A DNA stretch of 62,230 nt, filler included, from Candidatus Delongbacteria bacterium (GTDB taxonomy: Bacteria; UBA4055): assembly GCA_016937995.1 (NCBI GenBank). It is 6 parts of 6 records of this genome, joined end to end, with 100 filler letters (N's around TTAATTAATTAA, not from the genome) between each part and the next. Parts side by side here need not be neighbours in the genome. Positions count along the whole stretch, not along the records: positions 35,732 to 45,481 come from JAFGVM010000070.1; 5 more parts are not named here. One strand, 5' to 3'. Positions 35,954 through 55,900 of the stretch are shown piece after piece; within the stretch, counting starts at the first letter, position 1, and each line of letters starts with the position of its first letter. The position numbers and the translations under genes were made by a program. The notes beneath the pieces are model-generated. The model worked only from the letters and a program-made list of their open reading frames with translations, did no database searches and was not told the DNA's origin.

Positions 35954-35971
35954 AATTATTAAATCTTTTTT

Positions 35972-37141: not shown

Positions 37142-37160
37142 TTTCCTGCTCCCCGTATAA

Positions 37161-37691: not shown

Positions 37692-37820
37692 AATATATTT
37701 ATATCATCCGATAATCATACATTGTACAATGTAATTTGTAAATTGTCAATTATTTCATAGCATTTCAATGTTAGTTTTTTTACATTAACAACAAAGAAAC
37801 TAACTAAAACCTGCCGAATT

Positions 37821-40784
37821 ATGCCTGATCTAATCAATAAATTTGAACGATACTATTTTGAAGATACAAAATTTGAACTGTTAATGCCTGAAAGAATTTC
37901 TGAAATTCTGTTAATCTGTACGGACTATGATGCTTTTATGCTTGAGGAAGACGGACGGATCGAAGAGCAGGTTTTTAGAGAATACGGCGCTCTGAACTTA
38001 CGATTCCCTCCTCATTTTCACAGGGTTACATCTATAAAAGAAGCTAAAAAATTGTTAGCTGAAAAAGATTTTGATCTGATTATAACTATGCACTCACATG
38101 GTTTCTGGGATGCTTTTAAGATCAATTCAGAACTAAAAAGCCTGTATCCTCAAAAACCTATCGTTGTTCTTGCTCCTTTTTCAAGAGATGTACTCGATAA
38201 ATATGAAACTCTGGAACATGGAGGTTCAGACTTTGTTTTTTCATGGCTGGGAAATTCTGACATTTTATTAGCTATAATTAAGCTTATTGAGGATAAATTA
38301 AATGTTGAGCATGATGTTAAGATAGTAGGTGTTCAGACTATTATCCTTGTAGAAAATTCTATCAGATATTACTCAAGTTATCTACCTGAACTTTATAAAA
38401 CAATAATGAGTCAGACCCACAGTGTAATGAGTGAGTACATGAACGAACATCAGAAAAATTTGAGAATGAGAGGAAGGCCAAAGATATTACTAGCTACAAA
38501 TTATGAAGAAGCAATTGATCTATATGAACGTTACAAGCATAATCTACTCGGAATAATTACTGATGTAGAGTTTGAAAGAAATAAAATTCACGACCATGAT
38601 GCCGGAATTAAACTTAGTGAACATGTTCGAAAAGAAGATAACCGTTTACCTATCCTGATGCAATCTTCAAATGAGAATAACAGGTCAAGAGCAAAAAAAT
38701 TAAATGCAGGATTCATTAACAAACAATCTAATATCCTTCTGAACGAGCTGGTCGATTTTGTTCAGGTCAGGTTTGGATTTGGGGATTTTATTTTTCGTGA
38801 TCCGGTAGATCTTGAACCAGTCGCAACTGCTTCAAACCTGAGAGAACTTCAGAAATGCTTAAAAGATATTCCTGCTGAGTCTCTGGCCCATCATGCAAAC
38901 AATGATCATTTTTCTAAATGGTTAAGGGCAAGGACCCTGTTCCCTCTGGCTAATATCTTCAGATCAAAGAAAATAAATGATTTCCGATCAACAGATGATA
39001 TCAGAGAGTATCTGATAAACATTATCAAATATTATCGCAGAAGCAGCAGTAGAGGTATCATAGCACACTTTAATAAAGACAGATTCGACGAAGTATCCGG
39101 ATTTTCCAGGCTGGGACACGGACAGCTTGGAGGTAAAGCAAGAGGTTTGGCTTTCTCAGATTATATTCTAAAAAAACATAGAATGAATTTTAAATATGAC
39201 AAGATTGTTCTATCAATACCTCAAACAGTTGTATTGGCTACAGATGTTTTTAAGGAGTTCATGGATATTAATAAGCTTTATGATATAGCTTATTCTTCGG
39301 AAGATGATAAATTTATCCTGGACACTTTTATCAGAGCAAGATTTCCAGAATCGGTCATGCCTGACCTAAGAATTTTAATGGAAAGGATGGTTAGACCTTT
39401 AGCGATAAGATCATCAAGTCTTCTGGAGGATTCAACCTATCAGCCATTCGCAGGGATATATTCAACATATATGATCCCGAACAACGATTCAAATTTTAAA
39501 GTCCGGTTAACTGAACTTTGCGATGCTATCAAATGTGTGTTCGCTTCAACTTTCTTTACGAACAGTAAAAAATATCTAAAGGCTACAAAAAATGTTATTG
39601 ATGAAGAAAAGATGGCAGTTATCATTCAGGAGATCTCAGGTAGAACTTATGGCAATATACATTATCCGACTTTTTCGGGAGTTGCAAGATCCATAAATAA
39701 TTATCCTACCGGTTATGAAAAAGCCGATAGACCAATCGTTAACATTGCAGCGGGATTGGGTAAAACTATTGTTGATGGAAAAACATCTTTAAGGTTCTCA
39801 CCTGATTTTCCAAAGAATGTAATTCAGACTTCATCAACCGAGTCTACTTTGAAAAATACTCAAAAGAAATTTTATGCACTGGACCTGCAGGAAGACTCTT
39901 TTAGACCGAACACTGATGACAGTATGAATCTTCTGGAGCAGGATATATATGAAGGAGTGAAAAATGAATCATTTGAAAGTATAGTGTCCACTCTCGATTA
40001 TGAGAACAACGTAATAAGAGACAATTTTCACTATCAGGGTCCAAAATTCATGACTTTTGCAAATATTCTGAAAAGACAGACATTCCCGTTAAGTGAAATA
40101 TTGATAGACATTCTTTCTCTTCTGGAGAGAACGATGAATAATCCTGTCGAAATTGAGTTTGCTGTTAACATTGACCCGTTCAATAATATAAATTATTTTG
40201 ATCTCCTGCAGGCAAGACCGATAGTTTCAGGATTTGAATCACTCGACATTGATGTTGAAAAGTCTGATGATAAAAGTTCCATTATTAAATCGAACAATGC
40301 CTTGGGGAACGGATCTATCGAAAATATTTTTGATATCATATATGTTAAACCTGAATCGTTTGATCACTCAAAGACATTGAAGATCATGGATACAATTAAA
40401 GTACTTAATGCTAAAATGATAAAACATAAGAAAAAATATATTCTGATCGGTCCGGGAAGATGGGGAACTTCAGATCCATGGTTGGGTATGCCTGTTAAAT
40501 GGGCAGATATTTCTCAAGCATCAGTAATTGTTGAGGCCGGATTAAAAGATTTCATTATTGAGCAGAGTCAGGGATCTCATTTTTTTCACAACATAACAAC
40601 TTTCGGTATAATATATTATACGGTCAACCCCTTTAAAAACGATGGTTATTATGATGTTGAATTTCTTGGCAAACAAAAAGCTCTATTCGAAGATGAATTT
40701 GTTAAGCACATCCGTTTTAAAAAACCGGTTATCGTTAAAACTGACGGCAGATCAGGTAATGGTGTTATATTAAAACCCGTCTAA
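37821..40784 (+). CDS. Receiver-like domains fused to a PEP synthase/PPDK N-terminal (ATP-grasp) domain
   Basis: LGGKARGL, AIRSSSLLED, FAGIYST, EIEFA, LLQARP; C-terminal GPGRWG..SQGSHF; no PEP-binding barrel. Confidence 0.85.
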   Translation: MPDLINKFERYYFEDTKFELLMPERISEILLICTDYDAFMLEEDGRIEEQVFREYGALNLRFPPHFHRVTSIKEAKKLLAEKDFDLIITMHSHGFWDAFKINSELKSLYPQKPIVVLAPFSRDVLDKYETLEHGGSDFVFSWLGNSDILLAIIKLIEDKLNVEHDVKIVGVQTIILVENSIRYYSSYLPELYKTIMSQTHSVMSEYMNEHQKNLRMRGRPKILLATNYEEAIDLYERYKHNLLGIITDVEFERNKIHDHDAGIKLSEHVRKEDNRLPILMQSSNENNRSRAKKLNAGFINKQSNILLNELVDFVQVRFGFGDFIFRDPVDLEPVATASNLRELQKCLKDIPAESLAHHANNDHFSKWLRARTLFPLANIFRSKKINDFRSTDDIREYLINIIKYYRRSSSRGIIAHFNKDRFDEVSGFSRLGHGQLGGKARGLAFSDYILKKHRMNFKYDKIVLSIPQTVVLATDVFKEFMDINKLYDIAYSSEDDKFILDTFIRARFPESVMPDLRILMERMVRPLAIRSSSLLEDSTYQPFAGIYSTYMIPNNDSNFKVRLTELCDAIKCVFASTFFTNSKKYLKATKNVIDEEKMAVIIQEISGRTYGNIHYPTFSGVARSINNYPTGYEKADRPIVNIAAGLGKTIVDGKTSLRFSPDFPKNVIQTSSTESTLKNTQKKFYALDLQEDSFRPNTDDSMNLLEQDIYEGVKNESFESIVSTLDYENNVIRDNFHYQGPKFMTFANILKRQTFPLSEILIDILSLLERTMNNPVEIEFAVNIDPFNNINYFDLLQARPIVSGFESLDIDVEKSDDKSSIIKSNNALGNGSIENIFDIIYVKPESFDHSKTLKIMDTIKVLNAKMIKHKKKYILIGPGRWGTSDPWLGMPVKWADISQASVIVEAGLKDFIIEQSQGSHFFHNITTFGIIYYTVNPFKNDGYYDVEFLGKQKALFEDEFVKHIRFKKPVIVKTDGRSGNGVILKPV

Positions 40785-40791
40785 TTTTATT

Positions 40792-41499
40792 CTAAATTTT
40801 CCCTGTCTCAAAATATTCGCTGATAATTTTTTTTATTTTCGATGCAGCAGTGGTTGCCCGTTCATAAAATGTATATGTAAAAATAGAGTCGTCTATTGCA
40901 AATGACTTATCCAGATTATTCAAAATCGAATATCTTGTGTATGAAGCAAATTGAGATACAGGAAGCACTTCCCCGCTTGTTCCGATTATTACAAGCAGAT
41001 CGGTTTTCATCAATTCATTATACAGCCTCTGATACATTGGAGCAGGTTCACCGAACATAACAACGTTATGTCTGAGAGAGTGACTTTTACACTCAGGACA
41101 TTCTGAGAATTCTTTTATAGATCTGTACTCAATGTCAAATTCATTCCCGCAAACTTCACACTTAAGCTCTCTTAACTTACCATGAAGATGTATTACTTCC
41201 TTACAACCTGATTTTTCCAACAGATCATCAACATTTTGAGTCATAACTGTAATATTTCCAGGGTATTTTTCTTTTAATCCACTTATCATAAAATGCGAAT
41301 CATTAGGTAATTTATCACTTATATCTTTTCTTCTTTTATCGTAAAAATCAAGAACAAGCTGCCTATCCTGAATAAATCCCTGAACGGAACATACTTCCAT
41401 AACATTGTGCTCTTCCCACATACCATTGTTGGACCTGAAGGTCCTTATGCCAGATTCAGCTGATAACCCAGCCCCGCTTAATATTAAAACTTTATTCAT
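40792..41499 (-). CDS. cobB: NAD-dependent protein deacylase (sirtuin)
   Basis: GAGLSAESGIRTFR, TQNVD, HLHG, Zn-binding CxxC pairs, IGTS. Confidence 0.92.
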   Translation of the reverse strand: MNKVLILSGAGLSAESGIRTFRSNNGMWEEHNVMEVCSVQGFIQDRQLVLDFYDKRRKDISDKLPNDSHFMISGLKEKYPGNITVMTQNVDDLLEKSGCKEVIHLHGKLRELKCEVCGNEFDIEYRSIKEFSECPECKSHSLRHNVVMFGEPAPMYQRLYNELMKTDLLVIIGTSGEVLPVSQFASYTRYSILNNLDKSFAIDDSIFTYTFYERATTAASKIKKIISEYFETGKI

Positions 41500-41738
41500 C
41501 TCACCAATTTTGTTAATAGTTATATGTAAACACTGATAAATTTAGTGAAACTATTTGATTTATCAAATTAATTTTTCTCATGTTTTTGTGAGTCAGGTAA
41601 CAAAATAGATGATTTGCATAGTAAAAAAACTATAATAAATTTCTTGACAAGGTTTATACACTAAATTATATTGATTCCCGTCAATATAAAAATAGATAGC
41701 TAAAATAGATAAAAACCAAAACCAAAAAGGGAGTAAAC

Positions 41739-43112
41739 ATGTCTAAATTGTTAAAGAAGTACATGGACCTTTTACAATCTAAAGATCCAAATCAGCCTGA
41801 ATTTATTCAAGCTGCTCAAGAAGTAATCGAAACGATCATTCCTGTTCTTGAAAAACATCCGGAATACGTAGAAGCTAAGATCGTTGAAAGAATGATTGAG
41901 CCTGAAAGAGCTTTCCAGTTCAGAGTTCCTTGGGTAGATGATAAAGGTGTTGTTCAGGTTAACAGAGCTTTCCGTGTTGAGTATAACAGTGCTATTGGTC
42001 CTTACAAAGGCGGATTAAGATTTCATCCAAGTGTAAACTTAAGTATCCTTAAGTTTTTAGGATTCGAGCAGGTATTTAAGAACAGTCTTACTACTCTTCC
42101 TATGGGTGGTGGTAAAGGTGGATCTGACTTTGATCCAAAAGGTAAATCTGACAACGAAGTTATGGCTTTCTGCCAAAGCTTCATGAGCGAGCTTTTCAGA
42201 CACATTGGCCCTAATACTGACGTTCCTGCCGGTGATATCGGAGTTGGTGGAAGAGAGATCGGTTATATGTTCGGACAATATAAAAAATTAAGAAATGAAT
42301 TCACTGGTGTTCTTACCGGAAAAGGAAGAAACTGGGGTGGTTCACTAATAAGACCTGAAGCAACTGGTTACGGTGAAGTTTATTTTGCTCAAAATATGCT
42401 AGCTGAGAAAAAAGATTCTCTAAAAGGTAAAATTTGTGTCGTTAGTGGATCAGGAAACGTTACTCAATACTGTATCGAAAAAGCTAATGAACTTGGTGCT
42501 AAATGTATTTCTGTTTCTGATTCTTCAGGTACTATCATCGATATGGAAGGTATCAGTGGAAAGAAATGGGATTTCCTAATGGAATTAAAGAACGTTAAAC
42601 GTGGAAGAGTTGAAGAATTCGCTAAGAAATTCAAGAGCTGTAAATACTATCCTGGCAAAAGTGTATGGGATGTAGTTGTTGAACAAAAGATCAAACTTGA
42701 CGTTGCATTCCCATCAGCAACACAGAACGAGATCACAGGAAAGCACGCAAAAGCTATGTTAAAGCAAGGTTTAAAACTTGTTTCTGAAGGTGCTAACATG
42801 CCTTCACTTCCTGAAGCTCAAGAAGAATACATCAAAGCTAAGATCATGTATGGACCTGCAAAAGCAGCTAACGCTGGTGGAGTTGCAGTTTCCGGACTTG
42901 AAATGAGCCAGAACTCTCTAAGAATGAACTGGACTAGAGAAGAAGTTGATAATCATCTAAAAAGAATCATGAAAGATATCCATGATAACTCTAAAGAAGC
43001 AGCTTTGAAGTATTTACCAAAAGAAAAAGGATTCATCAACTATATGGCTGGTGCTAATATCGCCGGTTTCATTAAAGTTGCTGATTCTATGATGGATCAA
43101 GGTGTTGTTTAA
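41739..43112 (+). CDS. gdhA: NAD(P)-specific glutamate dehydrogenase
   Basis: GPYKGGLRFHP, GGGKGG, DVPAGDIG, RPEATG, EGANMP motifs. Confidence 0.97.
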   Translation: MSKLLKKYMDLLQSKDPNQPEFIQAAQEVIETIIPVLEKHPEYVEAKIVERMIEPERAFQFRVPWVDDKGVVQVNRAFRVEYNSAIGPYKGGLRFHPSVNLSILKFLGFEQVFKNSLTTLPMGGGKGGSDFDPKGKSDNEVMAFCQSFMSELFRHIGPNTDVPAGDIGVGGREIGYMFGQYKKLRNEFTGVLTGKGRNWGGSLIRPEATGYGEVYFAQNMLAEKKDSLKGKICVVSGSGNVTQYCIEKANELGAKCISVSDSSGTIIDMEGISGKKWDFLMELKNVKRGRVEEFAKKFKSCKYYPGKSVWDVVVEQKIKLDVAFPSATQNEITGKHAKAMLKQGLKLVSEGANMPSLPEAQEEYIKAKIMYGPAKAANAGGVAVSGLEMSQNSLRMNWTREEVDNHLKRIMKDIHDNSKEAALKYLPKEKGFINYMAGANIAGFIKVADSMMDQGVV

Positions 43113-43137
43113 TTAACATATTTTGAACCGAATCTTA

Positions 43138-43167
43138 AAGGGCTGATCATCATTCAGCCCTTTTTTA
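43138..43167 (+). terminator. Rho-independent terminator
   Basis: AAAGGGCTGA-TCATCAT-TCAGCCCTTT plus T-run. Confidence 0.8.
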
Positions 43168-43214
43168 TTTTAGAATCCCTTCAGCAGAAAAATTAATAAG
43201 CATAAACATTATAG

Positions 43215-43243
43215 TTGCAAAAATATAAGTAGTTATATATATT
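43215..43243 (+). promoter_or_regulatory. Putative promoter of the integrase
   Basis: TTGCAA-17bp-TATATT; AT-rich context lowers specificity. Confidence 0.4.
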
Positions 43244-43276
43244 GATATTTTATAAAATTATATTTGATGTGAAAAT

Positions 43277-44149
43277 ATGAATGAAGAAGCTAAAGAGAAG
43301 TATCTCGATTTATTAAAACTTAAAAATTACAGTAAGGCCACGATAAAGTCTTACGGTCATTGCTTTGATCTGTTTTTGGAACATTTCAAAAATGTTGACA
43401 TTAATAATCTTACTAAAGACGACATCACAAGTTTTCTAATAAAAGAACATGAAAAAGGCTTATCATACGGTTATCAGAATCAGATAATCAATGCAATTAA
43501 GTTTTATTACGAGAAAGTTCTTAAGCAAAAGAGAGAACTTTATGATATCCCAAGAGCAAAAAGACCACAAAAACTTCCAGTTGTTTTCAGCGAAGAAGAA
43601 GTGCTCAAATTGATTGGAAGCATTGATAATTTAAAACATAAATCCATATTATACCTTATTTACTCTGCCGGATTAAGGATCAGTGAAGCAGTGAACATGA
43701 AAATTGCCGATATCGACTCAAAAAGAAATGTAGTGATCGTACGGGGCGGAAAAGGTAAAAAAGACAGGACAACACTTCTTTCAGAGAAATTACTTTTAAT
43801 GTTAAGAAAGTATTATGTACAGTTTAGACCTAAAGATTTTCTGTTTGAAGGAGAAAATGGTGGTCAATATTCTATAAAAAGTATACAGAATGTTTTCAAC
43901 AGGGCATTAACGAGATCTGGGATAAGAAAAAAAGCAACAGTACATTCATTAAGACACAGCTTTGCAACTCATCTACTTGAACACGGGACAGACTTAAGAT
44001 ATATTCAGCAATTACTGGGACATAACAGTTCAAAGACAACAGAGATATATACACACATTACGAAGAAGGGAATGGACAAAATAAAGAGTCCACTAGACAA
44101 CCTAGAAGTACAGGAGAAAAAAACGCCATATGGCGGTTTGCCATTTTAA
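43277..44149 (+). CDS. Tyrosine recombinase, integron-integrase-like but without the IntI-specific insertion
   Basis: SAM-like N-terminus (YS..TIKSY, QNQIINAIKFYY), YSAGLRISE, GKGKKDR, HSLRHSFATHLLE, LLGH..KTTEIYTH; short segment between DR and FLF. Confidence 0.93.
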   Translation: MNEEAKEKYLDLLKLKNYSKATIKSYGHCFDLFLEHFKNVDINNLTKDDITSFLIKEHEKGLSYGYQNQIINAIKFYYEKVLKQKRELYDIPRAKRPQKLPVVFSEEEVLKLIGSIDNLKHKSILYLIYSAGLRISEAVNMKIADIDSKRNVVIVRGGKGKKDRTTLLSEKLLLMLRKYYVQFRPKDFLFEGENGGQYSIKSIQNVFNRALTRSGIRKKATVHSLRHSFATHLLEHGTDLRYIQQLLGHNSSKTTEIYTHITKKGMDKIKSPLDNLEVQEKKTPYGGLPF

Positions 44150-44203
44150 CCAGGCACAAACTGGACAGCAAAACGCCATATGGCGTTTTGCCGCACGTTA
44201 GCT
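44120..44203 (+). other. Putative primary (attI-like) recombination site
   Basis: Direct repeat AAAACGCCATATGGCG(G/T)TTTGCC at 44120 and 44170; 24-bp perfect palindrome 44168-44191; ends in G|TTAGCT. Confidence 0.65.
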
Positions 44204-44314
44204 GAAATACCACACACAAAGGAGCTTTTTTATATGATCTATATTTTAGTTGAAATTAATAAAATATATTTGTACAATTCACTAGAAATCCAGTAATTAT
44301 CAGGAGGAAGTAAG

Positions 44315-44485
44315 ATGCAAAAACTTATCACGATTTATGTAAACGGTTTTAGACTAGAAGAATTTTCTGCTAATGAACATTTAAATAAATATCTTAGTGA
44401 TGGATGGTACATTGTTTCTGTTACGACAGCAGGTTCTGGTGAAAAAGTCAAATGGTTAATAACTGTTGTTTTAGGTAAAGACTGA
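44315..44485 (+). CDS. Small 56-aa protein, DUF4177-like
   Basis: Not in the ORF track; CAGGAGG RBS; MQKLITIYVNGFRLEEFSANEHLNKYLSDGWYIVSVTTAGSGEKVKWLITVVLGKD. Confidence 0.65.
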   Translation: MQKLITIYVNGFRLEEFSANEHLNKYLSDGWYIVSVTTAGSGEKVKWLITVVLGKD

Positions 44486-44492
44486 GCTGTAT

Positions 44493-45308
44493 ATGGCAAT
44501 GTTTATTAATATTTCTTGGCCACAAAACAAAAGGTTGAAAGTAGCAACTTCGGCTCATGCGTTCTCTTTGATACATAATTCTCTGAATACCTCAACTTTT
44601 GTTTCAATGATCGGGAGTGATTTGATTGTTAATGGATTATTTGACATCACGAACCTTGTTCCAGATGTTGATCGATATCGTATTTTGTCAAATGTACTAT
44701 CTTCACATAATAATTGTACGGTTTGTCCAAATAATAATAACTTTAAAGATATATTACCCAGCCAGTCATCCTCTTTTGATAAAACGATTGTTCTAGTTAT
44801 CGAATCACCTCACGATCATGAATTTATCTATTTAAATAATAATCTTGTCCCAATTGCACCCGCACAAGCTAATAAGAAAAAAAGAGGGGCTGGATTCGCT
44901 ATAGAAAATTATTTGAAATGTAACATCCTATCACAGATATCAAACTATCCACAACATAATGTCAGAATTATTATAGCTAATCCAATTCAATTTCAGACTT
45001 CGTTATTTGTAATTCATAAGAAAGGCGGTCGAATAGCAAAAGATCTTAGAAATTCGGTTTGGCAAGCCCTATGGCGTCAAAAAAATATTCGGGCCAATTT
45101 TTTTGATAGATTAAAATGCTATGAGCCGGATTTAATAATTAATTCTTGTACTGGGGGTCAAGATAAACGTGGTAGCTTGAATTATTTTATTAGTAAATTT
45201 CTTGTCCAGCACAGTTTTAGCTATATTTCTTATAAAACAGGTCATCCTTCATCTGTATGGTACAGAACAATAAACGGTCGTCCTTTTGCGAAGGTAACAA
45301 AAATATAG
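44493..45308 (+). CDS. Hypothetical protein, possible uracil-DNA glycosylase superfamily fold
   Basis: IVLVIESP, PDLII and GHPSS motifs in the order expected for UDG-like proteins. Confidence 0.55.
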   Translation: MAMFINISWPQNKRLKVATSAHAFSLIHNSLNTSTFVSMIGSDLIVNGLFDITNLVPDVDRYRILSNVLSSHNNCTVCPNNNNFKDILPSQSSSFDKTIVLVIESPHDHEFIYLNNNLVPIAPAQANKKKRGAGFAIENYLKCNILSQISNYPQHNVRIIIANPIQFQTSLFVIHKKGGRIAKDLRNSVWQALWRQKNIRANFFDRLKCYEPDLIINSCTGGQDKRGSLNYFISKFLVQHSFSYISYKTGHPSSVWYRTINGRPFAKVTKI

Positions 45309-45337
45309 GATAATATCTCTCAGTGTGTGGTACTTGC

Positions 45338-45409
45338 AGCTAACATTGGAAAAATGACTTGACCCGAGTTATATTTTATCTAGTGAGCTTTTTTCCATGA
45401 CCGTTATGA
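45338..45409 (+). other. attC-like hairpin site, copy 1
   Basis: AGCTAACATTGGAAAAA...TTTTTCCATGACCG|TTATGA. Confidence 0.8.
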
Positions 45410-45481
45410 TCAATTGCAACTTTAAATAACGGTAGAGGAGGTAGAAGATGTTATACAAGCCTATTTAACCCGATTAAAAAA

Positions 45482-45581
45482 NNNNNNNNNNNNNNNNNNN
45501 NNNNNNNNNNNNNNNNNNNNNNNNNTTAATTAATTAANNNNNNNNNNNNNNNNNNNNNNNNNNNNNNNNNNNNNNNNNNNN
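45482..45581. other. Artificial contig spacer
   Basis: N44-TTAATTAATTAA-N44. Confidence 0.99.
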
Positions 45582-46069
45582 AGATCAAAATCCTCTTTGC
45601 TAAGGTCGAACAGATCAAATTCTTCAAATTCATTCGTATAGTCTATGTAAAACCTGAGCTTCTGAAAGTTTGAAGTTATGACATATTTACAACCATCCTG
45701 ATTATTCTTATACCCGAAAGCCTGTTCAGTGATAAGCTTCAAATCCTTCGTCTTAGTAGATTTAAGCTCAATAACAGCAACAGCTTTCTCATCCTTCAAA
45801 ATTGCACCGTCAGCTTTCCTACCATCAGACTGATTCTTATGCTCACGAACAAGGTTGAAATTATCAGCAGGCTTCAAAGTATAACCCAGAACATCCACGA
45901 ATAAGTCACGCAGAAAACCGTCCTGATACTCCTCTTCCTTAAGCTCCTTTATCTGCTCTATCTTAGAATGTGAGAAGTTTTTCTGAAATACCTCGTAGGC
46001 TTCGCTGACCTTGGTTTTATCAAGATGTTTAAGGAACTGCTTAATTACCGATTTTTGAAACAATGGCAT
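45582..46069 (-). CDS. Fused restriction-modification enzyme (type IIG/Eco57I-like), N-terminal nuclease domain, cut by the contig end
   Basis: KEEEYQDGFL, ADGAI...VIELK PD-(D/E)xK motif, QAFGYK, ITSNFQKLRFY. Confidence 0.8.
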
Positions 46070-46113
46070 TGTATTATTTCCTTATTGTCTAGAGACTCAC
46101 AGGCAATTAGCCT

Positions 46114-46322
46114 GACAAGGGGATATATCCCCTTGTTGAGTCTCGATTGTTTTGTCATTGCGAGGATTTCAATGAAATCCGTGGCAATCTTGTTTTGCGT
46201 AAAAGCCGTTGCGGGGCAACGTCTTTACTTCATTCCCCTCCCCTGGAGGTGTGTCAGCCACAGGCTGACGGGGTGGTCACGTGTGCCGCGTTGTCCGGGG
46301 ACGAATGGGAATCGTCCCCTAC
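46114..46322. repeat. Mosaic of palindromic repeats
   Basis: Units matching 14475-14511, 14533-14558, 25370-25415 (reverse) and 25460-25485. Confidence 0.75.
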
Positions 46323-46497
46323 TTGCCACTTATCACTTACAACGTACCACTGTATTTTTATACTTTTCAATACTTATAAAGAATATATCTATGATATAAT
46401 GTTTGTGCAAATGATTTTATTATAAAAAGAGTCTCGGGTTGCGGGTTGTGCATCTTTTGACTTACCCGGCACTAAAAGTGGTTTCAACCTTCGGGAT

Positions 46498-46527
46498 AAA
46501 AAAAAAGCGAGTCTCTCAACTCGCTTT
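46498..46527 (-). terminator. Terminator after tRNA-Leu(TAG)
   Basis: AAAGCGAG...CTCGCTTT hairpin with T-run on the minus strand. Confidence 0.75.
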
Positions 46528-46531
46528 AACG

Positions 46532-46613
46532 TGCGGGTAAAGGGATTCGAACCCCCACACCCAAAGGCACCAGATCCTAAGTCTGGCGTGTCTGCCAATT
46601 CCACCATACCCGC
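46532..46613 (-). tRNA. tRNA-Leu(TAG)
   Basis: Cloverleaf; anticodon arm CCAGA-CTTAGGA-TCTGG; long variable arm. Confidence 0.95.
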
Positions 46614-47004
46614 AGCAGAGGCAAATATATATTTTTGAAATTTTATTGTCAAGGTTTTTTTTGACAATATAATACTCCGGTTAACAATACGGATTTATTC
46701 ATCAACTATGTTGATAAATTCAAAAATTGAAATTTTATTGTCAAGGTTTTTTTTGACAAATAGGATCTTTTGACTTTCACTTGAGAATTGGACATTCCTG
46801 CCTGTCCCGATTTATCGGGAGATATTCAAAACAGATTCTGAATCAAGTCCGAGTATAAATTTTTATTCCTTTATCTCTTAGCGGCTTTGTGATAAACTGT
46901 TTTGCATGGTTTTCTGCGAATAAATATAATTTGCTTTTAACATATCATTATAATAAATTATCCGTGGAAATTAACAGAAAACTATTAAGTATTTTGGAGC
47001 AAAC

Positions 47005-48543
47005 ATGCTTGAAAAGATAAAACAACTTGCAGAAAAAATAGGTATTCTTAAAAAGGGCGGTGGACAGGAAAAATTAGAAAAAAGAAGAGAAAAGGGCCTT
47101 TTGACCGCACGTGACAGGATCGAGCAACTTTTAGATAAGGGAACATTTAATGAAATAGATCTTTTCGTGGAACATCAGGGAAGAGATTTTGGACTGGACA
47201 AGCAAACTCTGGCAGGTGACGGAGTAATTACAGGTTACGGAAAAATAGAAGGAAGACCTGTTTGTGTATTCGCACAGGATTTTACTGTGGCAGGTGGTTC
47301 ACTCGGCAGAATGCATGCTGCTAAGATAACAAAAGTAATGGATATCGCTTCTAATATGGGCGTACCTATTATAGGAATAAATGACTCCGGTGGTGCAAGG
47401 ATCCAGGAAGGTGTGGACTCTTTAGCGGGATACGGAGAAATATTTTACAGAAATACTCTGAACAGTGGAAAAATACCTCAAATATCAGTAATAATGGGAC
47501 CTTGTGCCGGTGGTGCTGTTTATTCACCTGCGATCACCGACTTTGTGTTCATGACAGATAAATTATCAAAGATGTTCATAACCGGACCAAAAGTTATCGA
47601 ATCTGTACTTAACGAAAAGATCGATGCTGAAACACTTGGCGGTGCAAGAGTTCATAACGAGCTTACAGGTAACGCTCACTTCTTCTCAAGCACAGAACAT
47701 GAAACTCTTGATCAGATAAAAAAATTACTGAGATTCTTACCGTCAGCCTGGGATAAACCTGTTCCTGCAGTTGCACCAAAACCTCCGAAAACACATAAGA
47801 AAATTCATGATATAGTACCTGAAGACTCTAAGATAGGTTTTGATGTAAAAGAACTGATAGCTTATCTTGTAGATGATTCCTATTTCATGGAAGTTCAGGA
47901 GTTATTCGCTCCCAATATCGTAACAGGATTCGCTCATATGGACGGGAAATCGATCGGTATCGTTGCAAATAATCCTGCAAAAATGGCCGGTGTTCTTGAT
48001 GTTGACTCCAGTGATAAGGCAGCAAGATTCGTAAGATTCTGTGACTGCTTCAATATCCCTATTCTAACTCTTGTTGACCTTCCTGGATATTTACCTGGTA
48101 TCGATCAGGAGCATTTTGGAGTTATCAGACACGGTGCCAAATTACTTTACGCATACTCTGAAGCGACAGTTCCTACTGTTACAGTCGTGATCAGAAAAGC
48201 ATTTGGTGGCGGATATATTGCAATGGCTTCAAAGCACTTGAGAACGGATTTTGTTTACGCATGGCCTACTGCTGAGATAGCAGTTATGGGCGCTGAAGGT
48301 GCTTGTAATGTAGTTTTTGCTAAAGAGATCGCAGAGGCAAAAAATCCTGAAGCTGTAAGACAACAGAAGATCAAAGAGTATAAAGACAAGTATTCAAATC
48401 CTTACAATGCAGCTTCAAAAGCTTATATTGACGCTATTATTAATCCTGAGGATACAAGAAAACAGATCATTACTTCCTTTGAACTGGCTCAGAACAAAGA
48501 ATACGTCAAGAAAAAGCATAAGCATGGTTCAATACCGTTATAA
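47005..48543 (+). CDS. Acyl-CoA carboxylase/decarboxylase carboxyltransferase subunit (PccB/MmdA family)
   Basis: GDGVITG, DSGGARIQEG, GPCAGGAVYSPA, AWPTAEIAVMG, KHGSIPL motifs. Confidence 0.95.
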   Translation: MLEKIKQLAEKIGILKKGGGQEKLEKRREKGLLTARDRIEQLLDKGTFNEIDLFVEHQGRDFGLDKQTLAGDGVITGYGKIEGRPVCVFAQDFTVAGGSLGRMHAAKITKVMDIASNMGVPIIGINDSGGARIQEGVDSLAGYGEIFYRNTLNSGKIPQISVIMGPCAGGAVYSPAITDFVFMTDKLSKMFITGPKVIESVLNEKIDAETLGGARVHNELTGNAHFFSSTEHETLDQIKKLLRFLPSAWDKPVPAVAPKPPKTHKKIHDIVPEDSKIGFDVKELIAYLVDDSYFMEVQELFAPNIVTGFAHMDGKSIGIVANNPAKMAGVLDVDSSDKAARFVRFCDCFNIPILTLVDLPGYLPGIDQEHFGVIRHGAKLLYAYSEATVPTVTVVIRKAFGGGYIAMASKHLRTDFVYAWPTAEIAVMGAEGACNVVFAKEIAEAKNPEAVRQQKIKEYKDKYSNPYNAASKAYIDAIINPEDTRKQIITSFELAQNKEYVKKKHKHGSIPL

Positions 48544-48555
48544 CAATCTATTGTA

Positions 48556-48891
48556 ATGAAAAAAGAAACTCAGGGATACTATATGTCAGATCACTTAGAA
48601 ATAAACGGTATTAAATATAAAACTGAATTAACTCAGAAATATTTAGACCGCAAAGGTTATAAGTTAAAGAAAAATAATGATATTAGAGCTTTTATACCGG
48701 GATTGATCCACAAGATATTCTGCAAACCCGGAGACCGTATAAAACCAAATACACCGATAATATCACTTGAAGCTATGAAAATGTATAATAATATCACTTT
48801 GATAGATGAGATTATTATTCAGGATGTTCTGGTAAAGATCGGGGATTCGGTTGAGAAAGATCAGATACTGGTCACTTACAAACCTGTTTAA
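48556..48891 (+). CDS. Biotin carboxyl carrier protein
   Basis: LEAMKM biotinylation motif. Confidence 0.9.
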   Translation: MKKETQGYYMSDHLEINGIKYKTELTQKYLDRKGYKLKKNNDIRAFIPGLIHKIFCKPGDRIKPNTPIISLEAMKMYNNITLIDEIIIQDVLVKIGDSVEKDQILVTYKPV

Positions 48892-48896
48892 AATAA

Positions 48897-48927
48897 AAGA
48901 TCCCTGATTCTATCAGGGATTTTTTTT
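48897..48927 (+). terminator. Rho-independent terminator
   Basis: ATCCCTGAT-TCT-ATCAGGGAT plus T-run. Confidence 0.8.
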
Positions 48928-48934
48928 AATTTTC

Positions 48935-49318
48935 TTAATCCTTTAGATGCTTTTCAATATTTTTCAATTTTTTTGAAATATCATTTACTCTGAATTCGAT
49001 CGAATTCAATATCCAGAATTGAAAATGCTCAACCTTAGTCTGTTTATGGATCATCCATATTATCTTGATCGATACCAGCAGCAGCCCAATTTCGAGAGAA
49101 AATAACGGTGGTAGAGCTGTTTCAACATTAAAAAAATGTCTTAGAACATCCAGAACAAAAAATACAATCAAAAATACAATGAACAGAACGTTGAAGATTC
49201 GGTCATACTGATTTAATGTCTTCCCTCCGATAGTTCCGATAATATTTTTAATTTTTTCCTTTTCTTTCTTATACTGCTCAAGTTCTTCCTGTAAGGCTTT
49301 CATTTCTTTTTCACTCAA
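48935..49318 (-). CDS. Hypothetical membrane protein (2 TM, coiled-coil ends)
   Basis: GAGGGAG RBS; two hydrophobic helices; HFQFWILNSIEFR segment. Confidence 0.7.
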   Translation of the reverse strand: MSEKEMKALQEELEQYKKEKEKIKNIIGTIGGKTLNQYDRIFNVLFIVFLIVFFVLDVLRHFFNVETALPPLFSLEIGLLLVSIKIIWMIHKQTKVEHFQFWILNSIEFRVNDISKKLKNIEKHLKD

Positions 49319-49440
49319 AATAACTCCCTCTATTGTTTGAAATTGATCGACCTATACAATATACGAAATTTCAACTGATGAATTAATGTAAAATTTTAGT
49401 TATATTTATCTTGTATAAGTGTACTTAATAGAGATCTACT

Positions 49441-51486
49441 ATGGAATTAATGTCACCTGCAGGAAATTATTCATCTTTTAAAGCCGCAATAAAGTCCGGT
49501 GCAGACGCTGTATATATGGGATTAAGCCTGTTCAATGCAAGAAGACCTGCCAAAAATTTTGGATTTACCGAATTAGAGGAAATTATTCATGAAGCCCATG
49601 AAAATAATACAAAAGTATATATTACATTAAATATAGACTTAAAATCCAATGAACTCACAGATGCCGTAAAAATCCTTCTGCTTCTTGTTAAAGTTAAAGT
49701 TGATGCTGTAATAGTCAAAGATACGGCTGTAATTTATCTGATAAATAAATATTTCCCTGAACTGGAAATTCACTTAAGTACTCAGTTCGGGATCGCTAAC
49801 TCAAAGGCAATGACAGCTGCCGGTAAATTACTGAAAGCTCAGAGAGTTGTTCTTGCAAGAGAGTTGAATTTCAATGAATTAAAAGCACTCAATAACGATG
49901 ATTATCCTGAAAGAGAGATATTTATTCAGGGATCAATGTGTTATTCTTTTTCCGGAAGATGCCTGATGTCCAGCTGGAATGGCGGAAGGTCAGCTAACCG
50001 AGGTGCCTGCCAGGCTCCCTGCAGATTTTTATATAAAAAAAATGATGAGAATATCCCTGAAAGTTATTTTTCAATGAAAGACCTTTCTCTTGCTGATAAA
50101 ATTGATGTATTGAACGAACTTAATATATCAGCTTTGAAAATCGAAGGAAGATTGAAAAGCAGTGACTGGGTCGGAGAAATTACTTCCATATACAGGGCTA
50201 TACTTGATCACAGCACAGAACCAGATCTGGACGTATTACAAAAGTTCTCCGGTAGAGAACTGGCTCATGGTTTCTATGGCGGTCTTGATGACCTGACTTC
50301 AGAACAGAAGATCAAACAGGGACAGTTCTCAGATAATAAGACCGGAGATACTTCTGTAGGTAAAGGTAAATACGATCTTTCGATCATGCTTCAGAATAAT
50401 AAAATAATAATCAATATTTTCTCAGATTACGGTAACATAATTGTTACTGTTCCTCATAAATGGATCATAAAGGAGAACAGAGCTATCTATTTCAGTGAGC
50501 TGGAACAGAGGATCTCAAATACTTCTTTCGGAGGTTTATTTTTAAATAAATTCACAATTAAAGATGATTTCCTTGTCACAAAATCTCAAATGAAAAATAT
50601 TATTTCCGAGATCGGATCCAATATCGCTCCTCTAATGAACAGAGAGAGAAAGTTTTTAAAAAGTATAAACGTCCCCGCCGAGATCGAATCCGAGCTGAAA
50701 ATAAGTTCTTCTGATATTTTTAACAGAATACCGGTAGATTTCAGGAATGCTACTACTTTACGGATCAATGCGAAAGATATAAATGGCATTTTAAAAAGCA
50801 TCGGTTCCTCCTCGGTAAAAAAAGTAGTGATAGATCAGGCAGGACCTGATGATCTGGATAAAATCGTTGAGCTTTCTGAAATTATCAAAGTGGAGATTTC
50901 TTTATTTCCTGTTCAGTTCGAGAATGATATACATGAACTTGAAGAACTGATATCGAAATTAGAACATACAAAGATAAGATCATTTGAGATCAATGATATC
51001 GGACATTTGATGTTATTGAAGAACAGCAAAAAGCCGGTCAATGGCGGTCCTTTTATCGCTCCATATAATCATGTTGCAGCTAAATTCATGAATTCTCTGG
51101 GAATGGAAAAAGTACACATGCCAATGGAGTCGGATATAGAATGTTTAAAAGGACTTTCAGGTTCGGAAGTGAAACTGAGGTTCACTCTTTATTCAAAAAT
51201 ACCTTTGTTCTACACCAGAGCTCAAAATAATGATATTCATACCGGTGATAAATTTACAGACTTTCAGGAAATAAGTTCAGTGGTAAATAAGTATAAAGAC
51301 ATTTCTATTTACTATTCAGATGAATATTTCACTACTAACGGGATAGATCTGAACGATCTGAACGTAAATGAACTGATAATTGACCTTTCAGATGAAACTG
51401 ATATAATCAAAAAATTTGAACAGCTGAAAATACATCCTGAAAAATTCAAAGGAAATAGTTTCAATCTTAAAAGAAGACTCTCATAG
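49441..51486 (+). CDS. U32 peptidase family protein (RlhA/TrhP-like RNA hydroxylation)
   Basis: ELMSPAG, GADAVY, HLSTQ, CYSFSGRC..NRGACQAPCR, KIEGR motifs. Confidence 0.9.
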   Translation: MELMSPAGNYSSFKAAIKSGADAVYMGLSLFNARRPAKNFGFTELEEIIHEAHENNTKVYITLNIDLKSNELTDAVKILLLLVKVKVDAVIVKDTAVIYLINKYFPELEIHLSTQFGIANSKAMTAAGKLLKAQRVVLARELNFNELKALNNDDYPEREIFIQGSMCYSFSGRCLMSSWNGGRSANRGACQAPCRFLYKKNDENIPESYFSMKDLSLADKIDVLNELNISALKIEGRLKSSDWVGEITSIYRAILDHSTEPDLDVLQKFSGRELAHGFYGGLDDLTSEQKIKQGQFSDNKTGDTSVGKGKYDLSIMLQNNKIIINIFSDYGNIIVTVPHKWIIKENRAIYFSELEQRISNTSFGGLFLNKFTIKDDFLVTKSQMKNIISEIGSNIAPLMNRERKFLKSINVPAEIESELKISSSDIFNRIPVDFRNATTLRINAKDINGILKSIGSSSVKKVVIDQAGPDDLDKIVELSEIIKVEISLFPVQFENDIHELEELISKLEHTKIRSFEINDIGHLMLLKNSKKPVNGGPFIAPYNHVAAKFMNSLGMEKVHMPMESDIECLKGLSGSEVKLRFTLYSKIPLFYTRAQNNDIHTGDKFTDFQEISSVVNKYKDISIYYSDEYFTTNGIDLNDLNVNELIIDLSDETDIIKKFEQLKIHPEKFKGNSFNLKRRLS

Positions 51487-52415
51487 TGCAAAAATTTGAC
51501 AGATTAAACAGGATCGGGGATCACTGGAAAAAAAAGTACGGTGCAAAAACCTATAAGCTTATATTCAGAGGTGAATTTACCTGTCCGAACATCGACGGTA
51601 GTCTGAGCAATAAAGGCTGTATTTACTGTAATATGAGATCCCTGGAACCTTTGATAGACAGTAAAAATATCGAAGGACATATAAAATATCTGGAAGATAG
51701 GAATAATGCAGAACTTTTTATAGCTTTCTTTCAGGATTTTTCATCGACCTATCCGGTTCATTCCATTGAAAATAAACATGACTATCTTAAAAAATTGTAC
51801 ACGAGTTCTATTGATAATGATAAAGTTGTCGGCATTTCAATTTCCACAAGACCTGACTGCATAAACACTGAAGTTCTTGATATCCTGGCAGAATTGCAAA
51901 AGGACGTAATAATTGAACTCGGATTACAGACAACCTGTGAAAAAGATATTAAATGGATAAACCGGGGATATGCAAACGATCAATTTATTGAAAGTGTCGA
52001 AATGATAAGATCTTACGGTTTTAATACCGTAGTGCACATTATATTAGGACTGCCAAATGAAACTGACCGGACGATATTAGAAAATGTAAAATTCATCAAT
52101 GCTCTTAAAATTCACGGAATTAAATTTCACCAGTTGATGGTTTTAAAGAACACTGAATTGGAAAATATTTTCAATAAAGGTGAGGTGAACGTATTAGATA
52201 TTCAGGAGTATTTCCGGAGAGTTTCGCTGTTCTTAGCCCATCTTGATAAGAATATCATTATTCACAGACTTTATGGTGACGCACCGAAAAAAGATCTAAT
52301 TGAGCCTCTATGGTGTCTAAATAAAACAGGTATTCAGGATAAATTATTCGATTATCTTGAAGAGCATAATATATGGCAGGGAATGCACCCAAGACCCACA
52401 ACCCATAACCCATAA
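51486..52415 (+). CDS. TIGR01212/YhcC family radical SAM protein
   Basis: FTCPNIDG..GCIYC, STRPDC, ELGLQT, HIILGLP motifs. Confidence 0.9.
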   Translation: MQKFDRLNRIGDHWKKKYGAKTYKLIFRGEFTCPNIDGSLSNKGCIYCNMRSLEPLIDSKNIEGHIKYLEDRNNAELFIAFFQDFSSTYPVHSIENKHDYLKKLYTSSIDNDKVVGISISTRPDCINTEVLDILAELQKDVIIELGLQTTCEKDIKWINRGYANDQFIESVEMIRSYGFNTVVHIILGLPNETDRTILENVKFINALKIHGIKFHQLMVLKNTELENIFNKGEVNVLDIQEYFRRVSLFLAHLDKNIIIHRLYGDAPKKDLIEPLWCLNKTGIQDKLFDYLEEHNIWQGMHPRPTTHNP

Positions 52416-52470
52416 CCCACAACCCACAACCCATAACCCATAACCCACAACCCATAACCCATAACCCACA
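52394..52470. repeat. Heptamer tandem repeat (ACCCAYA)n
   Basis: 11 copies; supplies the last codons and the stop of the radical SAM gene. Confidence 0.95.
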
Positions 52471-52608
52471 ACTATCTTTTAACTATGTTAATCCAATTAT
52501 TTCACATATATTTCATAATATCTAACTGAAAAAAATAAAAATATACATATATTGACATCTGTCAATTTTTGTTTTATATTACTTTCAAACTTTAAAAGGA
52601 GAAACACA

Positions 52609-52848
52609 ATGAGCGAATTCCCTGTTACTAAAAAACAAATAAAAGTATTTGTTACAATTTTTATTGTACTGATTCTTCTAATTTTCGGTAAAAGATTCTT
52701 CATTAGCATTGAAGCGGGACATGTGGGTGTTGCAACCCTTTTCGGTGATGTTCAGGAAAAAATCTACGATGAAGGTCTGCATATTCCTGTTAATCCCCTC
52801 TACAAATGGCATATATACGATGTCAGACAGAAGACACATCTTGAGCAG
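52609..52848 (+). CDS. SPFH/prohibitin family protein, N-terminal fragment cut by the contig end
   Basis: AAGGAG RBS; TM helix then IEAGHVGV..LFG..EGLH..NP. Confidence 0.8.
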
Positions 52849-52948
52849 NNNNNNNNNNNNNNNNNNNNNNNNNNNNNNNNNNNNNNNNNNNNTTAATTAA
52901 TTAANNNNNNNNNNNNNNNNNNNNNNNNNNNNNNNNNNNNNNNNNNNN
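52849..52948. other. Artificial contig spacer
   Basis: N44-TTAATTAATTAA-N44. Confidence 0.99.
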
Positions 52949-52950
52949 CG

Positions 52951-55900
52951 TTATGATCAATTGCAACTTTAATGACGGTAGGAGGTAAAGATGAACAAGC
53001 CTATTTAACCCGATTTAAAAAATAATTATCTTGTTTCGGGAACAAGAAAACACTACATTAATCTAAACAATATTTTACAAACTAGAGGTATCGTATGAAG
53101 AAAATAGCATTACTCTTAGTTTTTATTGTATCATTGTCTTTATGGGCAATGTCAGATACAGCTAATACAGAACCCGTTGTAAAAGAAAATTCTCAGAAGC
53201 TAACACAAGAAGAACTGCATAATATTGCAGTAAACTACTATCATTACATGTTTGAAGAAGAACATGAATGGAAAGGTATTAGAGTTGATTCTTCACAATC
53301 AGTAATCAAAGATATCTTTCCGTATGTGGAAGATGGAATAACTCTCTTCTATACCGTTAATTTCAATCCTGAAGGACGAATTTATACTCCCGCATATAAA
53401 TTTGTATCAAGACCTATCTTCAAAAGAGGTAGTGGTACAGCAAAAAAAATAAAATCTATAGACGATAAAAAAGCTATGCCCTTCGCGGCAATGCGAGGTT
53501 TCCACTCCATAAGAGAAAAGACATTACAGGGGCTTCAAGGTAAGTGTGAACAAACCGAAAAACAAAAAAAGATGTGGGAAAAATTCAATAAACCACCTAA
53601 TCAGTTTCATGAAAGGGTTAACCATGGATTAGATTTCCGTCCTCCAAAGTGGTGGCTCGAAAAAAAAAACTTTAAAAGTAACAAAAATACTGAAGGAATG
53701 ATCCAGACGGAGTGGAATCAGTATTTCCCCTTTAATAATGACTGTCCGTCACACTCGACAGGTAAAACACTTGTAGGTTGTACACCTCTTGCAATGTCTC
53801 AACTTATGAAATATTATGAATATCCTGAGACTGGTTTAAGTTATAATTCATATGCCTGGTTTAACGGCGAAATCATAAGAACTTTAGAAGCTGACTTTGG
53901 ACTCACAACTTATGACTGGGCTAATATGCCTGCTTATGCAGATTCTTCAAGTTCTCAAACAGAACAGGATGCACTCTCAACTCTTTGTAAGCATGCTGGT
54001 ATTGCCTTAAATGCTGATTATGGTGTTGCTTTAGGCACAGCAGCTTGGGCTGATGACATACCTCACAATATTACAAAATATTTTAACTATACTTCCCAAT
54101 TAATGTCAGAAGTTGCGTGGTATCCTAATGGATTGGCAGACTGGAAAGATTCTCTGATCACTGCTATGCAGAACGGTAAACCTGTTTTATACTCTGCCTT
54201 TTGGAATAGTGACGATCCGGGCAGTCATACTTGGATAGTAGATGATTATAAAATTTCTACAGATGAATTTCACTTTAATATGGGCTGGTATCATCCTGAT
54301 AGTTTAGATTGGAATGACTGGTATCCTGCAGATGATTATTTGAAAGATCAAGATAAAGGTATATTCAATATCATACCAGATAGATCTACAAATGCTCTGC
54401 CTATTCCATATACCGAAACTTTTGAAAACACTTATACAAGTACAACTGTAGCAAGCTCACAAATTCCCAAATACATTGGAATAGAAGAAAACAATTATAG
54501 TACATTACCAGATGTCGGTTACCAAAACAGTAATGTACTTGCAAGATTCTACGTACCTGATTCAGAAGATAGTTTTATTATAAAAAAGATAAACCTTACC
54601 ACTGATTCCGTTCCAATACTTCGTTACAAATACAGGATCAACGATTATCAGAATATCGTAGAAGGTGACAGCCTAATAATTGAAGTTTCTAAAGATAACA
54701 GGCTTTCATGGAAAAAAATCTCTAAAATTGATCATTTGAACTACAATAACACATCATATTATGAAGATAAGATCGTAAGTCTGAATAACTTCAAAAATGA
54801 AATCGTAAACATACGATATCATTTTTACTCGGTCGACAATGCAAATGCATATGATTATTACATCGACGACATCAAAGTTGGTGCACTTGGTTTGCATTTC
54901 ACAGATATATCTTACGATGATATTTTACAGCCTAAGGATGCACAATCTATCAAGATAACACCTTCAATTACACCACCGAAATCCAAAGGTTTTGAAGATT
55001 ATGACATGGCTATGGATTTCTATGTAAAAGAAGATAGCACAGCTATGGATTATATCTTAATGTATTCTGATGAATTACTTGAAAATGGAGTATTTGAATA
55101 TCTTGATTGGGATACGATGGATTTGATGGGTAAAAAATATCTGATTAAAGCAGTTGCAAGAACAAAAAGCAATAATACTTCACTAGACAGCACAGAAACA
55201 AGAGTACAATTCAGTGGGAGAAAATGTTATGTAACTTATCCGGTCAGTTATCAGGATTCAACTACTTTCTTTGATGTTGAGTTACCATTGACAATTGAAG
55301 GATACATTGAAGCTGAGTTGTCCTTCAGAGACACTCTTGAGAGTGGTATAGTTTTAGTTGGTGGCTGGATCTATGATTTCCAGAAAAAATTGTGGACTTA
55401 TGAAGATGAATATGCAGACTCTAACTATTTCTGTGATCCAGAAAATTATATTTATGCTTTATCTAAAGAAGAAAGAGATAAGGCAGTATTTGAATATAAA
55501 GGAGCTGACTTAGATTATATTCCTGAGCACAGATATAGCAAAAATAACCTCAAAAGAATATTACAAGCACAATCTGGAACGGTTAAAGATATAAATCCAA
55601 GTGTAATTTCTAAGTCTCCAAAAGAGCATTTTCAATATAACCCCTTATCTGATCTTCAAAGTCTAAGTAAATATTATTCTAAAATTGAGGATGAGAGTAA
55701 ATTTGATTCAAGAGACATGGTACATTTTGATACAATTTATTATGAACACGCTACTTCTCTGAATCTGTTTCCAGGATTTTATGGTTTTGAAGGAGGTGCG
55801 TACTATAGTGAAAACCTTTGGGAACCAATAGCTGAACGTGACTACCCAATGATCTTGATTCCTAACTGGAAATTGAAGCTAAAAGAAGACCCTTGGTATC

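Follow-up and report, generated by a model that had tools for sequence, protein, structure and literature searches.

The recombinase gene, the attI-like junction and the three sites

The window, namely the whole stretch of 62,230 nucleotides analysed here from a Candidatus Delongbacteria genome, has a GC content of about 35% and consists of six contigs (1-25004, 25105-35631, 35732-45481, 45582-52848, 52949-57394 and 57495-62230). The contigs are connected by artificial joins of the form N44-TTAATTAATTAA-N44 at 25005-25104, 35632-35731, 45482-45581, 52849-52948 and 57395-57494. The gene of a 290-aa tyrosine recombinase (43277-44149, + strand), which is the candidate integrase of the locus, sits after the gdhA terminator and is co-oriented with the cassettes behind it. 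A palindrome of 20 nt, read from the sequence, accompanies the end of this gene. Its first copy (44120-44139, +) overlaps the last codons and encodes the conserved C-terminal peptide ...KTPYGG.PF of the recombinase; thus the site element and the coding sequence overlap, both in the window and in the homologues. The second copy (44170-44189) is followed by GCCGCAC and by GTT at 44197-44199, and these together make up the attI-like site (44170-44199, +). The junction ...GCAC|GTT of this site lies 48 nt 3' of the stop codon of the recombinase, and the crossover would fall between G44197 and T44198.

From the GTT at 44197 on, the sequence matches the reverse complement of the arm that precedes the first of the three hairpin sites (attC copy 1), with the usual central loop. 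Since this start pairs with that arm, the first cassette is 44198-45403 (1206 nt, +). It contains two ORFs, of 56 aa (44315-44485) and 271 aa (44493-45308), for which family matches were sought in Pfam and NCBIfam and none were found. The start of a second cassette (45404-45481, +) runs to the contig end, and is a paralogue of the cassette start on the fifth contig. The latter contig is filled by one whole cassette of 4441 nt (52951-57391, +), from CG|TT to its own attC; the contig opens with CGTTATGATC... and closes with ...GACCGTTA, and the beginning of the contig can pair with the arm that precedes copy 2. The gene in this cassette (53095-57279) encodes a 1394-aa protein of the peptidase C10 family (Pfam PF01640). 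Two small cassettes in L005, L007 and other loci code for secreted proteins of about 200 aa with an N-terminus like that of the 1394-aa protein; the shared motif, found by eye, is ...EELHNIA.NYYHY.FEE.HEWKG... Near-identical sites cause an assembly to break exactly at cassette boundaries; three of the artificial joins of the window are at or near such boundaries. At the start of the fourth contig, the N-terminal part of an MmeI/HsdR_N-like restriction protein (45582-46069, -) runs off the contig.

The initial annotation had reported three copies of a hairpin site, and the copies are real. Their cores were located at 45342-45405, 57320-57393 and 57627-57700, within 3-6 nt of the earlier coordinates, and the TAAC begins at 45341, 57319 and 57626 in copies 1, 2 and 3, respectively. 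Copy 1 (45323-45405, +) is composed of the end arm (45323-45341), AAC (45342-45344), AT, the inner stem around a 35-nt centre, TGACC, and GTT (45403-45405). Copy 2 (57300-57393, +) comprises the end arm and the core, and the contig stops one base on. Copy 3 (57605-57700, +) likewise comprises the end arm and the core, with a terminal G|AT in place of G|TT. Exact matches to both arms occur three times in the window, on the + strand only. A covariance model, which was built from 73 distinct sequences and found 123 sites (103 distinct), was also run over the whole window with filters off, and only these three reached E < 1e-12 (82.7, 61.5 and 53.9 bits for copies 1 to 3). The next match (22575-22614, 21.4 bits, E = 0.002) has an AGC...GTT frame with a short loop and lies inside an ORF of 1184 aa (21142-24696); it is probably due to chance and is not credible as a fourth copy.

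The outer TAAC/GTTA pair, previously described for all copies, holds only in part: copy 3 ends with ...CCG-AT and not with GTTA, and copy 2 ends exactly at the contig end. The compensatory change from A to C in the left arm and from T to G in the right arm was confirmed, with A/T in copy 1 and C/G in copies 2 and 3. As for the variation of the centres from 35 to 45 nt, the 35-nt centre of copy 1 indeed differs; however, the 45-nt centres of copies 2 and 3 are alike. These two copies are therefore one subtype, and the window alone contains a single compensatory event. Directly behind copy 3, a large surface-protein gene (57701-60283, -) is cut at the junction, and its ORF runs into the attC up to a stop at 57662. 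The alignment of this protein to a 1165-aa homologue in L079 stops at residue 900 of the homologue, where 265 residues follow. The joining of G|AT to the surface-protein coding sequence looks like a secondary-site recombination, or a deletion ending there.

The recombinase and its loci in other genomes

Pfam analysis of the recombinase revealed PF00589 (E = 3.6e-40) and PF13495, and its motifs HxLRHSFAT and LGH...Y align to XerA and IntI4. Among the NCBIfam models, the scores were 217.7 bits for XerA_Arch (cut-off 220), 214.4 bits in two stretches for the integron integrase TIGR02249 (cut-off 265, not reached), 192 bits for XerD (cut-off 329.6), and 191.9 bits for XerC (cut-off 335.15). In the alignment with IntI4 of Vibrio cholerae (2A3V), residues 12-178 match residues 12-179 of the chain, and residues 203-275 match 247-319. 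The IntI-specific insertion is absent, with 24 residues in place of the 67 in IntI4, and the match extends to the C-terminal SPL motif (tail SPLD). The alignments to XerA are continuous, with 4A8E on top by sequence (148.7 bits). The AlphaFold model (mean pLDDT 80.8) has only a short hairpin between the helices 170-183 and 200-214, and no inserted element. Foldseek ranked XerA (5HXY, E = 3.2e-18) and IntI4 (2A3V, E = 1.3e-17) nearly equally. Among plasmid records sampled broadly, three to four unnamed integrases came first, and the best match after them was IntI1, with 31.5% identity. The recombinase family is large; it has members at 55-85% identity that carry many phylum labels, some with a length of 350-390 aa. 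One genome contains up to four copies, including a broken one, alongside other Xer-like genes with 30-36% identity.

The layout of the window recurs after recombinase homologues in the loci L074, L075, L077, L078 and L086, where copies of the palindrome are followed by ...AC|GTT and then by a cassette-type start of the form GTT-R-N4-(A/C/T)(A/C)A-T. The starts differ between these loci, and the palindrome carries a compensated variant among them. In L076, the recombinase homologue is followed by a site at the contig end. Neither a site after the integrases of L074 and L075 nor a partner arm for the cassette start of L075 was found within the ~3 kb that those contigs span. The model search of L086-L090 gave no sites, and these contigs end soon after the gene. 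Four sequencing runs were used as assembled contigs, in which rare excision circles cannot show. On one contig of run X3, from another study, the attI element leads through GCAC-GTT into a different cassette start, which is the start seen after attC sites in L017 and L056; moreover, the summed contig depth over attC was ~100x that of the unique flanks in this run. The contigs of the runs also contained one 'opposite strands' joint (44730/45407).

Sites were present in 13 of the 15 genomes examined for the phylum, with up to 43 per genome. The recombinase (E <= 1e-60) was found in five of the 15, all of which have sites, while eight genomes have sites only and two have neither; all of them are incomplete metagenome genomes. 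Most of the ten matches of the recombinase family have a contig end within a few hundred bases on the 3' side. Contig ends at this place are expected if repeats follow the gene; they also make the co-occurrence count a weak one, and 15 genomes are few for relating the integrase to the sites. Near-identical sites were also found under the labels Bacteroidales, Woesearchaeota, Melioribacteraceae, Bacilli, Endomicrobiaceae, Clostridia and others (L002, L015, L024, L025, L031, L033, L035, L036, L053 and L059), which could be mis-binned contigs or the result of transfer.

A related arrangement was observed on a 15-kb plasmid (NZ_CP111070.1) of Chondrinema litorale, a cultured strain of Bacteroidota. 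In the region ~6870-14900, a recombinase homologue of 386 aa (54% identity) is followed by a palindrome and a GTTAGCTGCAAGC junction. Further on lie genes for GNAT, sigma-70 and SDR proteins in the same orientation, as well as a group II intron and HipBA. A single short hairpin of the form AAC...GTT lies 3' of the SDR gene; the covariance model had no match on the plasmid. Judged from its sequence, the plasmid looks like a related platform, whose sites, if any, are of another type.

These genomes might also be read as carrying a classical integron, whose canonical IntI is missing from the fragmented sequences, so that the 290-aa recombinase would be a bystander or have some other role. All the genomes are indeed incomplete metagenome assemblies, arrays break assemblies, and the 290-aa family was unseen in eight of the 13 site-bearing genomes. 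Furthermore, recombinases lacking intI_Cterm beside attC are generally not IntI, as put in a passage of Cury 2016. However, no open frame in five array-bearing genomes reached the TIGR02249 cut-off, in a search that had no positive control because the 14 control genomes hold no integron (none of the 14 passes either). Every TIGR02249 match in the five genomes skips the model positions ~182-239. The junction 48 nt past the stop of the recombinase gene, its layout in six loci with different cassettes behind it, and the contig ends on the 3' side of most family matches also argue against a bystander. A hidden canonical integrase is thus considered improbable, and the 290-aa recombinase is retained as the candidate enzyme.

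Covariation, arm pairing and folding of the sites

A pattern scan of species-representative genomes, in which the variable pair was left free, returned 61 loci. These were mostly from metagenome genomes of Candidatus Delongbacteria, and some were labelled as other phyla; many had two or three copies on the same strand with a spacing of 0.5-2 kb. The free pair was A-T in 45 of 91 copies, C-G in 41, and mismatched in only five, and so the compensation also holds in the larger set. The A-T and C-G states both occur with the same centre types, which means that the switch arose more than once. In the 103 distinct sites, covariation was also seen in the 8-bp inner helix, where five of the eight pairs change on both sides and one pair takes all four types (U-A, A-U, G-C and C-G). 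The cells of this helix are paired in 97.4%, compared with 90.6% in shuffles (0/500 shuffles reach the observed value), and the pairing falls to 42-58% when the partner is shifted by 1-3 columns. The alignment was fitted to the model structure and hence favours it; the count of the free pair is free of that bias.

The asymmetric spacers, which had been called invariant, nearly are: AT is present in all 103 distinct sites, and of the 102 with letters at the other spacer, 95 have TGACC. AAC occurs in 103/103 and GTT in 101/102. The loops are 30-46 nt long. The inner helix has no single-base bulges, and the asymmetry consists of a bulge of 2 versus 5 nt. With the limits given in the initial annotation, the local hairpins in the array context fold no better than shuffled sequences (Z from -0.70 to +0.14, both strands).

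Consecutive sites bound 58 distinct cassettes with lengths of 450-7184 nt (median 1128 nt); within any one locus, all sites lie on the same strand. Of 56 cassettes, 47 have their longest ORF in the orientation of the site (42/47 of those under 2.2 kb), and the longest ORF covers a median of 77% of the cassette. Counted from GTT, the first ~22 nt of a cassette match the reverse complement of the ~22 nt that lead up to the AAC of its own site. The partner of the left outer arm is the start of the same cassette, ~1 kb upstream, and not the sequence 3' of the same site. The score of own start against own end exceeded the 99th percentile of randomly paired cassettes for 47 of the 58. For the 37 cassettes (of 58) that align without gaps, positions 4-8 after the G are Watson-Crick pairs in 181/185 cells and positions 12-22 in 377/407 cells, with up to four pair types per position. 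In between, positions 9-10 are mostly A·A, and 35 of the 37 cassettes have C·A at position 11.

The effect of this pairing on stability was calculated for 53 cassettes, in which the end was joined to its own start in silico. The energy of the circular-junction fold was -19.6 (top) and -20.7 kcal/mol (bottom), versus -8.3 (top) and -9.1 (bottom) in the array context and -7.5 kcal/mol for shuffled sequences. The strong hairpin thus exists only after circularisation of the cassette, with ~-20 versus ~-9 kcal/mol in the array. In 43 of the 53 cassettes the bottom strand is the more stable one, and the average difference is 1.14 kcal/mol. As for mismatches, the top strand shows A·C at 8 places in the core and at 47 in the arms, each equivalent to a bottom-strand G·T; the corresponding counts of top-strand G·T are 0 and 2. 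Oppositions capable of G·T pairing are therefore almost confined to the bottom strand, a hallmark of single-stranded DNA.

Duplex sites of the Xer/dif type or of the invertase type, in which the inverted repeats serve as half-sites for a protein dimer, were considered as well. The enzyme is Xer-like, with XerA on top by sequence and by fold, and the local hairpins are thermodynamically weak. The recognition of half-sites, however, does not predict arms of arbitrary sequence that pair with one another, using as many as four pair types at a position, nor mismatches so biased to one strand (55 top-strand A·C versus 2 top-strand G·T). Moreover, the paired arms are ~1 kb apart in the array and meet only in the circle. 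Very little credence is left for duplex recognition, and the folded, single-stranded form fits these features. The idea that the sites are non-recombinational repeats, such as REP/MITE-like elements or transcription terminators, is scarcely credible: although they lie just 3' of ORFs, contain a T-run and are numerous in each genome, a terminator scan called none at the three sites, the loops are long, the orientation within arrays is strictly single, the arms are cassette-specific and complementary, an attI junction adjoins the recombinase, and the same cassette start is found after different sites.

The linkage between cores and flanks offers a further view of recombination at these sites. 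When the 150-nt left flanks were at least 85% alike, the cores were alike in 4/4 pairs (identity 0.79-0.94), two of which had unrelated right flanks; when the 150-nt right flanks were alike, the cores differed in 6/6 pairs (identity 0.14-0.72). This small sample fits an exchange at G|TT as in integrons. A comparison with 40-nt flanks was misleading and was replaced by that with 150-nt flanks, because the terminal arms are common to unrelated cassettes. The start and end arms (22-40 nt) form families that recur with unrelated ORFs among the loci L001-L061. For example, 17 cassette pairs share a start arm, with similar ORFs in only 1/17, and the final 40 nt of a cassette are found again beside different cores (core identity < 0.9 in 15/18 pairs). 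The arms hence belong to the site and not to the cargo; since there is only a limited set of outer-arm families, the 58 cassettes represent a smaller number of independent covariation events. On the sequences compared, exchange at G|TT alone does not explain the reassortment of arms, cores and cargo.

Proposed mechanism and relationship to integrons

Taken together, the three hairpins are very probably attC-type recombination sites of an integron-like gene-capture platform in this Candidatus Delongbacteria genome. The earlier proposal that the site is selected as a folded structure, like single-stranded attC, is supported by the covariation of the inner helix, the outer pairing and the G·T bias of the bottom strand. 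The platform would be composed of the co-oriented 290-aa recombinase gene, the attI-like site 48 nt past its stop, and the cassettes. A cassette would extend from the TT of one GTT to the G of the next, and would contain the cargo (usually one ORF) with its own site behind it. Once the cassette is excised and circularised, the full site would be ~105-120 nt long. From the outside in, it would consist of an outer helix of 10-11 bp, a fixed mismatch loop (A·A, A·A and C·A on the top strand), an 8-bp helix with AAC/GTT, the bulge of 2 versus 5 nt (AT/TGACC), the 8-bp inner helix, and the 30-46-nt loop.

As to the enzyme, the strand recombined and the role of the unpaired marks, we infer the following. 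The recombinase would, like IntI, fold the bottom strand and cut it at AAC (G|TT on the top strand); circles would be inserted at attI, and excision would take place between neighbouring sites. An enzyme without the IntI-specific domain must tell the strands apart by other marks, and the likeliest ones may be the fixed mismatch loop, 9-11 bp to the outside of the cut, and the bulge on the inner side, whose AT/TGACC asymmetry had been put forward in the initial annotation as possibly setting the strand choice. Several points count against this reading, among them that L074 and L075 are without a near site, that the consensus is limited to GTTR, that single extrahelical bases are absent, that the hairpin in the array is about as stable as shuffled sequences, and that the recombinase was found in only five of the 13 site-bearing genomes.

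The sites and arrays resemble those of sedentary chromosomal integrons, for which we take the Vibrio cholerae superintegron, with its homogeneous attC sites (VCRs), to be an example. The common features include arrays of co-oriented cassettes that mostly have a single ORF, sites that hardly differ within a lineage, AAC/GTT with an exchange at G|TT, and complementarity of the cassette start to the arm that precedes its own site. The attC hallmarks found here are the hairpin with R and L helices, AAC/GTT, the bias to the bottom strand, and co-oriented cassettes beside attI and an integrase. Rfam is not known to include an attC family. As in classical attC, the bottom strand is richer in G·T and more stable; the same G·T bias with a similar energy difference was described in the part of Nivina 2016 on classical sites, as one basis of the bottom-strand choice. 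There are also some differences. The classical core site is 7 nt long, whereas a paired arm of ~22 nt with a fixed C·A/A·A loop lies outside the cut here. According to the description of extrahelical bases in Nivina 2016, classical attC has such bases near L'', on the arm opposite AAC of the bottom strand; whereas no single one is present here, and AAC of the bottom strand is flanked by the long side of the bulge of 2 versus 5 nt, so that the asymmetry is inverted relative to classical sites. Only GTTR of the classical consensus RYYYAAC/GTTRRRY is conserved: position 4 is R/Y in 36/37, and position 5 of the 3' arm is T or G in 33/37, so that the classical core consensus does not apply.

The recombinase shares with IntI the tyrosine recombinase domain and the place beside attI and the array (six loci, plus L076); however, it has no additional domain near patch III, scores below the TIGR02249 cut-off, and its gene is co-oriented with the cassettes. 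The reverse-orientation integrons of Spirochaetota, of which Treponema denticola is presumably an example, come close in the last respect. Their integrase gene is opposite to the classical divergent layout, as described in the section of Ghaly 2022 on them; whereas by the definition given there, their integrases carry the IntI-specific domain, unlike the enzyme here (the comparison is with the description only). That domain is treated in the same text as a defining feature of an integron integrase, while a statement in Smyshlyaev 2021 calls the insertion 'not fully conserved' in an integron-like subgroup.

The archaeal XerA and bacterial Xer proteins are similar to the recombinase in sequence (4A8E as the best match), in fold (5HXY), and in the two-domain architecture without an insertion. 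Xer/dif, however, is a housekeeping system with a single short duplex dif, whereas up to four recombinase copies and up to 43 sites per genome are found here. The attI-cassette junction, the SPLD tail that aligns to the end of IntI4, and IntI1 as the next-best match on plasmids are further differences from Xer/dif. The arrays are also like the CALINs (attC clusters without an integron integrase), since by the rule of PF00589 plus intI_Cterm, as set out in parts of Cury 2016 and Neron 2022, they would be filed as integrase-less; a specific recombinase and an attI junction are nevertheless present here, unlike in CALINs.

A literature search, covering articles without their supplements, found no description of this system, nor of Delongbacteria with an integron, attC, gene cassette, recombinase or CALIN. 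The system was likewise not found in the literature on attC and the additional domain, on integron-like cassettes in metagenome assemblies, or on Xer-like cassette arrays. Supplementary Figure S1 of Cury 2016 has 21 integrases without intI_Cterm, which might include relatives of the 290-aa family. When the integrase is defined by its extra domain, as in integron searches, such systems are filed as integrase-less arrays or missed.

The IntI-specific domain was reported to be necessary for activity by Messier and Roy 2001, as cited in a passage of Ghaly 2022. A wider conclusion, to which we give even weight for and against, is that this domain is dispensable for the capture of genes through hairpin sites, with the whole candidate phylum, and probably relatives elsewhere, using a plain Xer-type enzyme. 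The folded site read by this enzyme would be built differently, with the long arm and its fixed C·A/A·A loop outside the cut, and with the bulge of 2 versus 5 nt replacing the extrahelical bases. This would be a parallel or an ancestral link between Xer/dif and integrons. If the 290-aa enzyme recombines the folded sites, the extra domain would not be a requirement for the single-stranded recombination of cassettes. Integron-type gene capture would then extend to phyla from which it had not been reported earlier, and the compact pair of enzyme and site, with its clear and mutable structural marks, would be suited to studying how tyrosine recombinases choose a strand.
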